Source: a virus. From it: a stretch of 35,887 nucleotides of DNA. This document shows, piece by piece, positions 1,532 to 28,980 of this stretch (positions are counted from its first letter, which is position 1; each line of letters starts with the position of its first letter). The notes beneath the pieces are model-generated. The model saw only the letters and a list, made by a program, of their open reading frames with translations. It did no database searches and was not told the DNA's origin. Made by a program: the position numbers and the translations under genes. Where the stretch lies: the IMG/VR virus record IMGVR_UViG_3300045988_088904, positions 1-35,887 of that record. The stretch is one strand, 5' to 3'.

Positions 1532-2848
1532 ATGGGATTCGATTTAGCATCGGTGCTCAAGAATGTGCCCGAATCGGGCACAAATGACGGCCGTGAGCGC
1601 ATCGAGTACATAGGGCTCGACAGGCTGCACGACGACCCGAATAACTTCTACTCCCTCGACGGCATCAAGGAGCTTGCCGAAAACATCGAGTTTGCGGGGC
1701 TCCAGCAGCCCGTCCGCGTCCGCCGCGATGCGGAACACAGCGGCGAGTACATCATCGTCAGCGGCCACCGCCGCACGGCGGCGATGCGCAAGATCGTCGA
1801 GGACGGCAACAAGGCCTTTGAGACGGTGCCCTGTATCGTCGAGGCCGACGGCGGCAGCGAGGCGCTGCGCGAGCTGCGCCTGATCTACGCTAACTCCGAC
1901 ACCCGCCGGATGTCCTCCGCGGATATCTCGAAGCAGGCCGAGCGCGTCGAGGCGCTGCTCTACCAGCTCAAGGAGGAGGGCGTCGAGTTCCCCGGCAGGA
2001 TGCGCGACCACGTCGCCGAGGCCTGCAAGGTGAGCAAGTCGAAGCTGTCCCGCCTGAAGGTCATTCGCGATAAGCTCGCGCCGGATATCTACGCCGGGTA
2101 CTATGAAAAGGGCAAGCTACCAGAGGACACGGCCTATACGCTCGCTAAGCTTCCGGTCGAAGTCCAGCGTGACATTGTTGACCGCGCGACGCGGGATGGG
2201 CGGCAAAACATCCAGTATCTTTACGCGGCCAAAGTCGAAGATCAGGGCAAGGACATCGCGCGTTTCAGCAAAATGGCCTGCCGCTGCGAGCAGGGCGGAA
2301 TCTGTATCAATGTTCCAAACCTGATGGATAAACTCTATGACACTCGCGGATGGCGAGGCTATACGCACTGCGGCTCCGGCTGCTGCTACGACTGCGTCGA
2401 GCTTGCGACCTGCTCAAAGTGCTGCTCCCGCATGGCGGTAGTCAAGGCGCAGAAAAAGGCCGAAAAGAAAGCGGCCAAGGCCGCGGAAGCTGCGGTGCAG
2501 GCCGAACGCGACAGGCCGGTGATCGACGCGCTGCGGCTCCTCTGGAACCGGATGGGCGAGGCCTGTAAGAGGGCGGGCGTCGATTACAGCGAGGTCTGCG
2601 ACAAGGCCGGCATATACGCCACCCTGCCTCCCAAGGACGCGACCGTGCTGCTTGACGGCGGCGGCAAGCTGACGGCAGACACCTGGCCTCCGTTCGGCTG
2701 CGTCATAGGCCGAGACGATATATCGAGCCTCGTCAAGCTGGCCGATCTGCTCGGCTGCTCGCTGGATTATCTCTTTGGCCGCGATGTGCCCGAATCGGGC
2801 ACCGGCACGAATTATTTTTGCGCCGACGGAGAAAGGAAGAACGGATGA
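1532..2848 (+). CDS. parB: ParB-family protein with Cys-rich insert and C-terminal XRE-like helix
   Basis: GAGGAGG RBS. ParB N-terminal domain motifs DDPNNFY and VSGHRRTAAM. Cys-rich block at 2273-2435. C-terminal LADLLGCSLDYLFG resembles the end of an XRE HTH. Confidence 0.8.
   Translation: MGFDLASVLKNVPESGTNDGRERIEYIGLDRLHDDPNNFYSLDGIKELAENIEFAGLQQPVRVRRDAEHSGEYIIVSGHRRTAAMRKIVEDGNKAFETVPCIVEADGGSEALRELRLIYANSDTRRMSSADISKQAERVEALLYQLKEEGVEFPGRMRDHVAEACKVSKSKLSRLKVIRDKLAPDIYAGYYEKGKLPEDTAYTLAKLPVEVQRDIVDRATRDGRQNIQYLYAAKVEDQGKDIARFSKMACRCEQGGICINVPNLMDKLYDTRGWRGYTHCGSGCCYDCVELATCSKCCSRMAVVKAQKKAEKKAAKAAEAAVQAERDRPVIDALRLLWNRMGEACKRAGVDYSEVCDKAGIYATLPPKDATVLLDGGGKLTADTWPPFGCVIGRDDISSLVKLADLLGCSLDYLFGRDVPESGTGTNYFCADGERKNG
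1564..1582. repeat. Dispersed palindrome copy 1 (TGTGCCCGAATCGGGCACA), inside parB 5' end
   Basis: 9-bp arms around a single central base. In-frame, encodes VPESGT. Confidence 0.95.
2786..2802. repeat. Dispersed palindrome copy 2 (GTGCCCGAATCGGGCAC), inside parB 3' end
   Basis: Exact 17-nt core, in the same codon phase as copy 1; again encodes VPESGT. Confidence 0.95.
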
Positions 2849-3354
2849 AAGCGGCTTTAATCAGCATACGCCCGGAGTGGTGTGCGAAGATCGCGAGCGG
2901 CGAGAAGACAATCGAGGTGCGGAAAACGCGCCCGAAGCTGGAAACGCCGTTTAAGTGCTATATCTACTGCACGAAGGACGCGAAGAAACAGTTTTGGACA
3001 GGGCCGAAGTATTCCTATGCGGACGACCACAGCCATAACGCGTTTGATAAATGTGGGAGCGGAAAGGTCATCGGCGAGTTTCTTTGCAATCAGATTATTG
3101 AGGATCACACGTTCGGTCTCAATGAAAAGTTTTACACAGCGGCTTGCATGAGCGCATGCGATGCGGCGGCGTATGCATTGCAGTCACCGATGTACGGCTG
3201 GAATATCTCCAATCTTAAAATTTATGATGTACCACGCGAACTGGCCAGTCTTACCGGCCTACGCGCTACGAGGTTCGGCGCGGCACCGTATGATATCAAG
3301 CGCGCCCCGCAAAGCTGGTGCTATGTGGAGGAGGCAGACAATGGCAATAAGTAA
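2845..3354 (+). CDS. ASCH (PUA-like) domain protein
   Basis: ATG 2845 after GGAGAAAGGAAG. N-terminus MKAALISIRPEWCAKIASGEKTIEVRK is typical of phage ASCH-domain proteins (recollection). Confidence 0.6.
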   Translation: MKAALISIRPEWCAKIASGEKTIEVRKTRPKLETPFKCYIYCTKDAKKQFWTGPKYSYADDHSHNAFDKCGSGKVIGEFLCNQIIEDHTFGLNEKFYTAACMSACDAAAYALQSPMYGWNISNLKIYDVPRELASLTGLRATRFGAAPYDIKRAPQSWCYVEEADNGNK

Positions 3355-3685
3355 AAAGACCCGTGAGGCTGTCTATCAGAAATACGCCGGGCACTGTGCA
3401 TATTGCGGCCGGCCGCTCGCCTACAAGGACATGCAGGTCGACCACTTTAGACCGCTGCGAGCATGGGACGCGGAGGATGCAGGAACCGACGATATCTCGA
3501 ACCTCATGCCGGCGTGCCGGATGTGTAACCATTATAAGCGGGCAAACAGCATTGAAACGTTTCGCAGATACATCCGGGAAATCCCGCAAAAGCTCCGAGA
3601 CAATTACATCTACAAGGTTGGCCTTGCTTATGGCACCGTCACAGAGCGCGAAAAGCCGATAGTGTTTTATTTTGAATTATTTTGA
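3341..3685 (+). CDS. HNH endonuclease
   Basis: ATG 3341 after GGAGGAGG (3327-3334). CAYCG...VDHFRP...NLMPACRMCNHYK is an HNH/zinc-finger motif set. Confidence 0.8.
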   Translation: MAISKKTREAVYQKYAGHCAYCGRPLAYKDMQVDHFRPLRAWDAEDAGTDDISNLMPACRMCNHYKRANSIETFRRYIREIPQKLRDNYIYKVGLAYGTVTEREKPIVFYFELF

Positions 3686-3693
3686 GGAGGAAA

Positions 3694-3912
3694 ATGTCAA
3701 TGGATGCTCAAGCTTCTGATGTTGCGCCGGTGAATAGCTATTGGGAAAGTTATTCGTGTTTGCAGTTTATGGGGACAGATGAATGGGGCGAACCGAAATG
3801 GCGCGCTGGTAGGTTTTACGTCTGCCACAACTACAAATGCCGATGGAAAACGGTTGTAAAAAGTAACTTCTGCCCCAACTGCGGCGCGAGAATGGACGGT
3901 GAAGAGCCGTGA
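3694..3912 (+). CDS. Small zinc-ribbon protein
   Basis: GAGGAGG RBS 5 nt before ATG 3694. C-terminal CHNYKC...CPNCG Cys pairs. Confidence 0.6.
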   Translation: MSMDAQASDVAPVNSYWESYSCLQFMGTDEWGEPKWRAGRFYVCHNYKCRWKTVVKSNFCPNCGARMDGEEP

Positions 3913-4124
3913 AAACAGACAGAGCACTTCACGCGCCCCTCACGATAGACCTGTCTGACATTACATGGGATACTCCGATTTTGCTTCGAATTCCCATCCT
4001 CCCCGGTTTCCCGGGCATCATGGAGTACAAGGGCTATATTTCAGATCTTGAGTTCAACTCTGGGGCGAAACAGTTGTCCTTGACGTTCGACATACCCGGC
4101 TCGGAGAAAAAGCGGCATGAGTAA
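3909..4124 (+). CDS. Hypothetical protein
   Basis: GTG start overlaps the upstream stop (GTGA). Same strand, packed operon. No recognisable motif. Confidence 0.45.
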   Translation: MKTDRALHAPLTIDLSDITWDTPILLRIPILPGFPGIMEYKGYISDLEFNSGAKQLSLTFDIPGSEKKRHE

Positions 4125-28004: not shown

Positions 28005-28026
28005 GGATTTCCTCCCTATAAATTGA

Positions 28027-28049
28027 CCTGTGCCCTAATTGGGCACAGG
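28027..28049. repeat. Dispersed palindrome copy 6, variant (CCTGTGCCCTAATTGGGCACAGG)
   Basis: 9-bp outer arms with a degenerate centre. Lies 10 nt downstream (minus strand) of the stop of 28060..28932 and 22 nt upstream of the int start. Confidence 0.8.
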
Positions 28050-28059
28050 CTGTAATCTG

Positions 28060-28932
28060 TTAATATCCTGCTTTTGCGACGCCGTACTCGGCTTGTTCCT
28101 GAGAGAATCCCTCATATTTGAGCTGGTCAATCAGCCCTGACTTTGAGAACGAGGAGTGTTTCAGATACGACTCCGCGCACTTTGCTGCCTGTTCGTACCA
28201 GTCAGCGCCGCAGTTGTCGGCAGCAAACAGAGCTTCGGCATGAGTATACCCCTCATATTCGAGCTGTCCGATCAGGCCGGTGTACGAGAAAGACGAAGAC
28301 CGCAGGTATGACAGCGCGGACTTGAGCGCGTTTTCCTCCCCAACGGTCTCGGCTGCTCTTAGCTTAGCCGAGGATGTCGAGTCGCCGGACGATATTTCAT
28401 CGAAATAAGTCAGAACATCGTAAGAGACTGCCCCGTCGTAGATCTCAATCAGCGTATGCAGTCCCGTGTTTCCGTTGCTGTTGCGGAACGCCACGAAATC
28501 ATTGTCATTGACAACAAGAATGTTAATGACAGGGTCGGTGCAGCCGGCGGCGACGAGCTTATCCGTCAGCTCTTTACTCTTAGCGCATAAGGAGTCCTTA
28601 AGCGCCGTCCAATCATCATCTTGGTTGTTGTGCTCGGCGGAGAGCTGAATTGCCTGTTGTGTTATCGTTGTGTCCGCAAGGTACACCGTGAAGGAAACCC
28701 CGCGGCTATTAGAATCGGCCTGAACGACAACAGCATCAAAGTCCCCGTTAAATGCCGAAGCTATAGCAAGTTTATAATTTCTCAGATCGTCTTTCGGTGT
28801 CGGCTCGGGTGTTGCGGGCTCAGCGGTTGACATCGCGGGCTGCACACTGGAGGTCGGCTTCTTTGACATGGTGCCCATCAGAACGCCAAGAACAGCAATC
28901 AGAATGAGCAGATACCTCCACTTCAACTTCAT
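28060..28932 (-). CDS. ltp: Membrane-anchored Ltp-like superinfection exclusion protein (two C-terminal Ltp repeats plus extra N-terminal domain)
   Basis: N-terminal transmembrane anchor LLILIAVLGVLMG. C-terminal ENALKSALSYLRSSSFSYTGLIGQLEYEGYTHAEALFAADNCGADWYEQAAKCAESYLKHSSFSKSGLIDQLKYEGFSQEQAEYGV is two Ltp (PF07553-type) repeats. Confidence 0.8.
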   Translation of the reverse strand: MKLKWRYLLILIAVLGVLMGTMSKKPTSSVQPAMSTAEPATPEPTPKDDLRNYKLAIASAFNGDFDAVVVQADSNSRGVSFTVYLADTTITQQAIQLSAEHNNQDDDWTALKDSLCAKSKELTDKLVAAGCTDPVINILVVNDNDFVAFRNSNGNTGLHTLIEIYDGAVSYDVLTYFDEISSGDSTSSAKLRAAETVGEENALKSALSYLRSSSFSYTGLIGQLEYEGYTHAEALFAADNCGADWYEQAAKCAESYLKHSSFSKSGLIDQLKYEGFSQEQAEYGVAKAGY

Positions 28933-28955
28933 CCTCGTCGCCTCCTGATAAAATT

Positions 28956-28980
28956 GCCGGTGCCCGAATCGGGCACCGGC
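28956..28980. repeat. Dispersed palindrome copy 7, extended (GCCGGTGCCCGAATCGGGCACCGGC)
   Basis: Perfect 12-bp arms. Lies 6 nt downstream (minus strand) of the stop of 28987..29553 and 23 nt upstream of the Ltp-like start. Confidence 0.95.

Follow-up and report, generated by a model that had tools for sequence, protein, structure and literature searches.

Dispersed palindromes in a gut phage genome as putative sites of a ParB partition protein

The temperate phage N15, a linear phage-plasmid, and its relatives KO2 and PY54 carry a partition system of ParA/ParB type (SopAB). The four sites of N15 are reportedly scattered over its genome, some of them in regions of lytic development, a finding ascribed to Ravin & Lane 1999 and Grigoriev & Lobocka 2001. 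On plasmid RK2 the OB operators of KorB are spread over the replicon, and chromosomal parS, the site of the Spo0J/Noc proteins, is a 16-bp palindrome present several times, with certain copies lying within genes, spo0J among them. Stoperators of Cluster A mycobacteriophages are multi-copy sites as well, and the conserved inverted repeats of phage phiC31 are comparable. The N15 centromere consists of four separate short GC-rich palindromes (inverted repeats IR1-IR4) of the form GTGCGACC-NN-GGTCGCAC (PMC7205306). KorB is a ParB-family clamp, dependent on cytidine triphosphate (CTP), that loads at palindromic operators TTTAGCGGCTAAA and serves partition as well as long-range silencing (PMC11790492). 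A temperate phage with stoperators has one short site repeated many times over its genome, as a rule in the small gaps between genes, and one protein bound to these copies blocks transcription (PMC9283540, PMC6550527). The present report concerns a palindrome dispersed over virus record IMGVR_UViG_3300045988_088904 (positions 1 to 35,887; this whole stretch of 35,887 nucleotides (nt) is called the window below). The window is a complete circular temperate phage genome of ~35.8 kb, and the host clade is Oscillospiraceae (Flavonifractor-like). To judge from sequence comparison, the palindrome is most likely the putative landing site of the phage's own ParB rather than a mobile element or an RNA signal.

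The palindrome, GTGCCC-N5-GGGCAC, is present in seven copies in the window, five exact and two variant:

Site 1, 1565..1581: GTGCCCGAATCGGGCAC, exact; in-frame as VPESGT in parB (codons 12-17), 46 nt past the parA stop
Site 2, 2786..2802: GTGCCCGAATCGGGCAC, exact; in-frame as VPESGT in parB (codons 419-424 of 438), in the C-terminal linker
Site 3, 6566..6582: GTGCCCGATTCGGGCAC, exact; 3 nt past the stop of the Rep-like gene, followed by a T run; terminator-like
Site 4, 12627..12643: GTGCCCGAATCGGGCAC, exact; 1 nt past the capsid stop, 21 nt ahead of the neck-protein start
Site 5, 24344..24360: GTGCCCTATTCGGGCAC, 1 mismatch (GTGCCC-TATTC-GGGCAC); 2 nt past the XhlA-like stop, 20 nt ahead of the holin start
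Site 6, 28030..28046: GTGCCCTAATTGGGCAC, 2 mismatches (GTGCCC-TAATT-GGGCAC), the flanks adding 3 complementary pairs; in a minus-strand operon, past the Ltp stop and ahead of the integrase start
Site 7, 28960..28976: GTGCCCGAATCGGGCAC, exact, with ccg/cgg extension; between the stop of a helix-turn-helix (HTH) gene and the Ltp start; resembles a bidirectional terminator

A scan of the window with the pattern GTGCCCGAWTCGGGCAC, allowing up to 3 mismatches, gave 7 matches against 0.23 expected, and none of 100 dinucleotide shuffles reached 7. This bears out an earlier note on the same DNA, made from its letters alone, in which the palindrome was held to be repeated beyond chance. The copy positions given there agree with the present ones, apart from the last exact copy, which had been placed 2 nt off at 28962-28978. 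Two copies were called degenerate there; both are present, and both keep perfect 6-bp arms, the change being confined to the 5-nt centre. The conserved unit is the pair of arms GTGCCC/GGGCAC with a 5-nt centre. Arms of 8-12 bp and a T...A flank, also proposed there, are not general: across relatives, flank complementarity beyond the 17-mer was not above chance (intergenic mean 0.95 against a null of 0.63, standard deviation 0.2). The two in-frame copies near both ends of parB were described correctly. Site density is 1 per 5 kb over the whole 36-kb replicon. Copies 3-7 lie in intergenic gaps of 27-126 nt, each starting 1-13 nt past a stop codon (17-mer coordinates) on the transcribed strand, and copies 4-7 are 20-27 nt ahead of the next start codon. 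The rule that copies stand just after a stop thus applies to these five; in relatives the copies follow a gene or domain boundary, often 11-27 nt ahead of the next start. Placement after stops is explained by the short intergenic gaps, which leave hardly any other room. Relatives L241 and L242 hold a 16-bp variant at the place of site 3. The TATTC variant of site 5 (VPYSGT if coding) was also seen after the Rep-like gene in L243-L249 and at the ParB C-terminus of P0005, P0045, P0062, P0065 and P0071; its presence at different positions in different phages suggests a tolerated functional variant or gene conversion between copies.

By analogy, the closest precedents are N15 IR1-4 and RK2 KorB-OB. 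The N15 repeats are similar in size and style to the GTGCCCGA-W-TCGGGCAC of the window. N15, however, is a proteobacterial plasmid prophage with a large type Ia SopA, whereas the window phage has a host among the Clostridia, encodes an integrase and has a ParA of the small type; its sites also lie in-frame in coding linkers, inside parB among others, and their binding by ParB is a prediction. The KorB system differs in that no KorA-like partner was identified here and in that the sites of the window family are associated with promoters only occasionally. Chromosomal ParB-parS has a homologous ParB fold and likewise a short palindromic site; the window palindrome nevertheless has no relation to TGTTNCACGTGAAACA, the parS in use in the host clade (PMC10197239), and is 17 bp long with an odd centre. 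Stoperators lack symmetry, favour one orientation, are recognised by an immunity repressor that binds as a monomer, and serve also as operator at the early promoter, whereas the window sites are symmetric, without orientation bias and absent from the immunity region.

The 17-mer is one version of a large, undescribed palindrome family, GTG(C/T)CC-N4-6-GG(G/A)CAC (16-18 bp), whose members were found in related gut phages by the hundred and in two AT-rich plasmids of clostridia, pCP13 and pCS1. An exact-match scan of viral contigs returned at least 120 stretches, with 147 copies in 1.03 Mb among the matches listed. Together with the window these make 152 exact copies, 79 intergenic and 73 in genes. 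All 73 coding copies are read in one frame, VP(E/D)SGT. They are spread over at least 13 unrelated protein families, always at protein termini or in interdomain linkers; carriers include the large terminase (residue 48), a head-tail connector (C-terminus), a tail protein, an amidase-SPOR linker, a holin-like protein, an 1818-aa head protein and two ParB types. Synonymous positions are invariant within the palindrome and vary in its flanks, so selection acts on the nucleotides. The centre base of the 17-mer is A or T only and flips between close relatives. Syntenic relatives with ~50% identical ParB lack the 17-mer and have GTGCCC-AGAT/ATCT/AAAT-GGGCAC at the same places instead; the sites of these N4-spacer relatives lie in parB (codons 13-18), directly past the Rep-like stop, past the large-terminase stop and in the lysogeny module. 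Most genomes hold 2-10 copies of their own variant at syntenic places, and a few mix C and T at position 4. Four sites are present in Flavonifractor phage Cormatin, a relative available in culture, which resides in F. plautii YL31 as an integrated prophage and can be induced (PMC10197239). Literature searches for the exact palindrome sequences and peptides found nothing, in agreement with the earlier statement that no described family has this sequence. Non-palindromic centres flip to their reverse complement between close relatives (window sites against L241/L242/L243-L259: A<->T, AGAT<->ATCT) and within pCP13 (CCGGG<->CCCGG); these flips look like minute inversions, of a kind known for hairpin loops, rather than point mutations. 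Two relatives, L302 (700-5000) and L299 (600-4600), have 8-10 copies, five of which cluster in larger intergenic regions of the early/lysogeny part, two of them inside a repeated ~40-nt unit.

The window partition module is, by its similarities, a genuine ParA/ParB pair, and the window ParB matches solved ParB/Noc structures across N-domain and HTH (PDB 4umk, 6t1f, 7ol9). The link between palindrome and parB was examined in 80 loci gathered by ParB similarity alone, independent of the motif. Nearly every ParB in these loci, down to 40% identity, has GTG(C/T)C(C/G)-N4-6-(G/C)G(G/A)CAC directly ahead of the conserved REQIEYI, and the residues encoded at this 5' site covary P<->G and S<->D, as the symmetry of the DNA demands. 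The position of site 1 holds each genome's own palindrome variant across the ParB family, the usual arrangement being one copy in, or just ahead of, the parB 5' end. In distant clades, whose ParBs have 620 aa, both ends of the gene hold a site, the distal one 13-22 nt ahead of the parB stop. Of 65 ParB loci, 52 have a perfect site elsewhere than in parB, compared with 19 of 80 loci with a DUF3102 protein in place of ParB (odds ratio 12.8, p = 8e-12). The association with one ParB subfamily, which the earlier note had proposed to look for, is therefore strong, though not absolute. Clades with an unusual spacer (4 or 6 nt) have unique residues in the ParB recognition helix. As in ParABS systems, a short palindrome adjoins the par operon in phages down to 40% ParB identity, in Cormatin, in pCP13 and in pCS1-5. 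The ParB subfamily has more than 4,400 homologues in public data.

ParB homologues with 35% identity are encoded on the pCP13-family plasmids of C. perfringens and the pCS1 plasmids of P. sordellii. Plasmid pCP13 (NC_003042.1, 25.5% GC; L323+L324) has 7 dispersed intergenic copies of GTGTCC-CCSGG-GGACAC (centre CCGGG or CCCGG), at 1701, 3516, 18492, 37854, 45174, 45228 and 49934. One copy, the counterpart of site 1, lies between the parA stop and the parB start, and one is 7 nt past the small gene that follows parB. Two copies flank parAB in pCS1-5 of P. sordellii (L325), at 89 and 2504. Among all window proteins, ParA and ParB only have homologues on pCP13. The published parS proposal for pCP13 is a different, untested 117-bp region (PMC4459074), and no mention of the dispersed pCP13 palindromes was found in the literature. 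Since parS of the host F. plautii is the canonical TGTTTCACGTGAAACA (PMC10197239), the palindromes are not host parS.

Direct observation covers the palindromes themselves, how symmetric they are, the family they form and how they associate with parB, and a mechanism may be proposed from this. The seven palindromes would be symmetric double-stranded sites for a dimeric sequence-specific protein, most likely the phage ParB, whose dimers would recognise two GTGCCCGA half-sites via their HTH domains. ParB is predicted to load at the sites, probably as CTP-dependent clamps, and to spread locally. ParA would use the resulting ParB complexes, which may also dampen or insulate transcription at cistron boundaries. 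In a nearly all-coding genome, a 17-bp GC-rich palindrome would survive only in short gaps or in-frame as a harmless VP(E/D)SGT linker peptide. The palindromes are accordingly read here, with a probability of about one half, as dispersed ParB sites, parS-like or KorB-operator-like, situated where a compact genome can accommodate them, and such placement would explain both the position just after stops and the single coding frame. Among the three hypotheses of the earlier note, parS-type sites are the best supported, as the palindrome family is found in or next to parB across the ParB subfamily, including plasmids that share only ParA and ParB; sites nevertheless persist in some relatives without ParB.

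Several points weigh against ParB as the binder. The 19 DUF3102 loci mentioned above (24%) have no ParB-family gene within ±10 kb and still carry perfect sites, five in one phage; most of these sites are in the lysogeny module, and they may be relics of module exchange or a sign of another binder. Clades with identical arms differ in arm spacing (4, 5 or 6 nt), which is awkward for a rigid dimer. The patterns of covariation between the recognition helix and the site variants are suggestive, with no clean residue-to-base code, and no protein is near-identical across site classes, so that covariation is unable to single out ParB. The sites abut the ends of open reading frames even within long intergenic regions. 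All seven pCP13 copies have A-run/T-run flanks, a hint of a transcriptional role. The window phage has an integrase and its relative Cormatin integrates (PMC10197239), so the need for a centromere is not evident.

In some relatives (L390, 1544-2644; L403, 1347-2438; L404-L483) the partner of ParA keeps the first 20-49 ParB residues only, followed by DUF3102 and a coiled coil, and a PcfJ-like gene adjoins. The retained N-terminal stretch is the ParA-interaction peptide. The DUF3102 genes have a 20-bp palindrome of their own, ATCCGCA-N6-TGCGGAT, at a fixed position (+259/+289 nt), with symmetric variants and few dispersed copies (4 in L422). This mirrors the ParB design and, by analogy, favours a general scheme in which the site of a partner protein is embedded in that protein's gene. 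The bodies of ParB and DUF3102 have no profile similarity, and for DUF3102 searches gave no PDB or NCBIfam lead and no useful literature. A wider and unlikely proposal is an undescribed Clostridia-wide ParB class in which replicon-wide arrays of 16-18 bp palindromes would go beyond a centromere role and form a KorB-like CTP-clamp system, by which the transcription units of conjugative plasmids and integrated prophages would be insulated or silenced. Its sites would be written into protein linkers in one frame and would double as break-and-join points for module exchange, including the swap of parB for a DUF3102 partner with its own embedded palindrome.

An RNA function was weighed in a symmetry analysis of 255 dereplicated sites, oriented by the sense strand. 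The palindromes might act as RNA (or bidirectional RNA) hairpins at cistron boundaries, as terminators, attenuators, or 5'/3' stabilising or processing stems, with the sequence kept by a protein or RNase that recognises the stem; this is rather improbable. If transcribed, the copies are predicted to fold at -12 to -25 kcal/mol, many directly adjoin the ribosome-binding site that comes next, the stem is longer by 3-6 pairs in ~6 of 43 intergenic contexts (in several cases with a T run behind it), and the A-run/T-run flanks of pCP13 point the same way. The sense strand, however, shows no preference for G·U over C·A: mismatches at positions 4/14 are U·G in 21 and C·A in 17 sites, and those at positions 7/11 are G·U in 12 and A·C in 19. 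About a quarter of the sites have a stem mismatch. Complementary A/T stands at positions 8/10 in 235 of the 255 sites, although a hairpin would leave these positions unpaired, and the centre base relative to transcription is A in 112 and T in 120, with no strand preference. The stem is conserved in sequence and not merely in pairing, flank complementarity overall is at chance level, half of the copies are within coding regions (some mid-protein), and no Rfam family matched in a search of the window. Mismatches, centre and flanks together follow the pattern expected if a homodimer binds a symmetric site in double-stranded DNA. In the window, terminator-like scores are confined to copies 3 and 7, in line with the earlier note, which stated that most copies are not classical intrinsic terminators; most copies in relatives lack a T run too. 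The note's suggestion of REP-like (repetitive extragenic palindrome) stabilisers of mRNA 3' ends is not supported as a general function, given the lack of sense-strand wobble bias and of flank covariation and the number of copies inside genes; copies 3 and 7 and all pCP13 copies do resemble terminators, and a secondary RNA effect is possible there.

A different DNA-binding protein is a possibility to be reckoned with, if a doubtful one. The binder would be a phage XRE/CI-type lysogeny regulator or a Clostridia-wide host factor, the sites would serve as roadblocks or insulators at cistron boundaries like stoperators or the phiC31 inverted repeats, and the parB link would be autoregulation or coincidence. 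Sites are found at gene boundaries, copies 6 and 7 bracket the Ltp gene within the lysogeny operon, the ParB-less DUF3102 phages keep sites mostly in that module, and L420 (4085-4465, minus strand) encodes a CI-like repressor with an in-frame site in its linker and an adjoining ImmA-like protease. The site in this repressor reads VSDSDT after the HTH domain and recalls the C-terminal parB site that follows the LDYLFGR motif. The window sites are not at predicted promoters; one relative, L302, has a copy 33 nt downstream of a strong promoter (3098-3126). Stoperators, too, are many genome-wide repressor sites, which halt elongation (PMC9283540). Against such a binder, the window has no copy at all in its early/immunity region (28977..35887 and 1..1564), including the promoters at 30204-30300, and a different AT-rich palindrome occupies a promoter-like site there. 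Phages with 30-50% identity in their other proteins have the identical 17-mer in common, a constancy unlike the fast divergence usual for immunity specificities. The window and pCP13 are linked by ParA and ParB only, and host-clade matches, among the genome matches listed, are few and nearly all prophage-like. This last result bears equally on a REP of the host; abundance throughout the host chromosome, which the earlier note would have taken to mark such an element, was not seen among these matches. The readings that make the palindrome a hairpin substrate of the HUH Rep-like protein (nicking or origin, in the manner of REP and REP-associated tyrosine transposases, RAYT), a mobile mini-element or a host REP are scarcely credible. 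The Rep-like gene is always followed by a copy and its protein has intact HUH and Y motifs, but the sites are perfectly symmetric, without an asymmetric nick motif, and dispersed, where a rolling-circle nick site usually has one copy close to rep. Co-occurrence with the HUH gene, which had been suggested as a check, breaks down in pCP13, which has sites and no homologue of this Rep. Among phages with the identical 17-mer the Rep-like proteins share ~30% identity, yet identity is 66% to a clade whose site differs. Nor are the copies indels: palindrome-free ParB homologues have linker peptides of the same length, so the palindromes arose in place. A role chiefly in recombination between phages, with conserved linker sequences promoting module shuffling at gene and domain boundaries, is very unlikely. 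When site pairs share one flank, the other flank is non-homologous in 35%, against 0-5% at positions shifted by 120-400 nt; ends of BLAST alignments cluster at sites (15.5%, against 0.7% expected); and both the ParB-to-DUF3102 swap and the truncation of the window ParB break at a site. Site-free gene ends, however, are nearly equal in discordance (23% against 26%), the signal of coding sites comes mainly from one or two families, the pairs are not independent, and a second-order benefit poorly explains strict sequence conservation. Mosaic junctions at sites are mostly a boundary effect, with no evidence of a dedicated recombination signal.

Several models of origin were rejected. An insertion model, as for Rickettsia palindromic elements (RPE), was dropped because the alignment of ParB homologues has no 6-codon indel and variable linkers of the same length at both positions. 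A host REP was dropped after a scan of a genome collection, which returned at least 120 stretches; among the matches listed, ~100 were single ones in unrelated high-GC taxa and ~16 were homologous to these phages. The latter come from metagenome-assembled genomes (MAGs) of Oscillospiraceae and other Clostridia and, being homologous to these phages in Clostridia MAGs, are taken as prophages. A REP/RAYT pair, which would have extragenic copies by the hundred in the host chromosome and a Y1 (IS200-like) transposase, was dropped because half of the phage copies are inside genes and the HUH protein is in PF23343, not in a Y1 transposase family. Exact copies were also seen in MAGs labelled Bacteroides, Prevotella, Duncaniella and Alistipes (L206, L173, L187, L205); homology of the L206 and L173 stretches to Clostridia phages (90% and 23% covered) suggests mis-binned phage contigs.

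Identical stretches of 55 nt at 1-55 and 35833-35887, found by end-to-end comparison, indicate that the window is a circularly assembled complete genome of ~35,832 bp. Its genes were mapped by a codon-usage gene caller and domain searches:

35074..555, across the circular junction: DnaB helicase gene (gene caller and domain search)
788..1519, plus strand: parA, small Walker-type ParA of 243 aa (domain search)
1532..2848, plus strand: parB, 438 codons, ParB N-domain and HTH DNA-binding domain, with GHRRTAA as GxxRxxA CTP motif; proposed binder
2845-3354: weakly ASCH-like gene after parB
Following parB: small genes, one a methyltransferase-like fragment
5834-6562: HUH Rep-like gene, family PF23343
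Then HNH, terminase, portal and protease genes, the capsid gene at 11411-12625, and tail genes
Lysis genes: XhlA-like gene, and holin at 24381-24647
Lysogeny operon, minus strand: CI-like HTH gene 29883-30185, second HTH gene 28987-29553, Ltp 28060-28932, integrase 26790-28004

The window ParB (438 aa) ends right after site 2, while most close relatives have 481-501 aa. The ASCH-like gene stands in for the usual ParB C-terminal domain, and the rearrangement breakpoint abuts the palindrome (2803-3354). An 'XRE-like' tail at the ParB C-terminus was below Pfam significance. As a terminator candidate, site 3 is far surpassed by a GC-rich hairpin of 20 pairs with a T run behind it, at 6843-6890, in the space that separates the Rep-like gene from the packaging genes. 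An AT-rich 17-bp palindrome, GATATTATGATAATATC, at 29628 overlaps a promoter-like site (29614-29644) and lies 240 nt downstream of the CI-like HTH gene. A perfect early promoter of consensus type, TTGACA-17-TATAAT, at 30272-30300 faces the leftward promoter of the CI-like gene (30232-30204). This palindrome and the facing promoters are probably the real immunity switch, without a copy of the GC-rich motif. A tRNA search of the window found none, and no close relatives were found in phage and plasmid nucleotide collections.

What is new is most likely a large family of dispersed ParB-type sites, either parS-like or KorB-operator-like. If ParB binds them, parS would be defined for a large uncharacterised ParB subfamily, whose carriers are abundant Oscillospiraceae prophages of the human gut and toxin and conjugative plasmids of C. 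perfringens and P. sordellii. The palindrome would then be a simple sequence marker for this group of phages and plasmids, with F. plautii YL31 and Cormatin, and C. perfringens strain 13 and pCP13, as tractable systems. It would also be a clear case of a DNA-level signal shaping protein sequence, through the VPESGT frame in at least 13 unrelated proteins. That an integrating prophage keeps a partition system with genome-wide sites points to a regulatory or chromosome-organising role.

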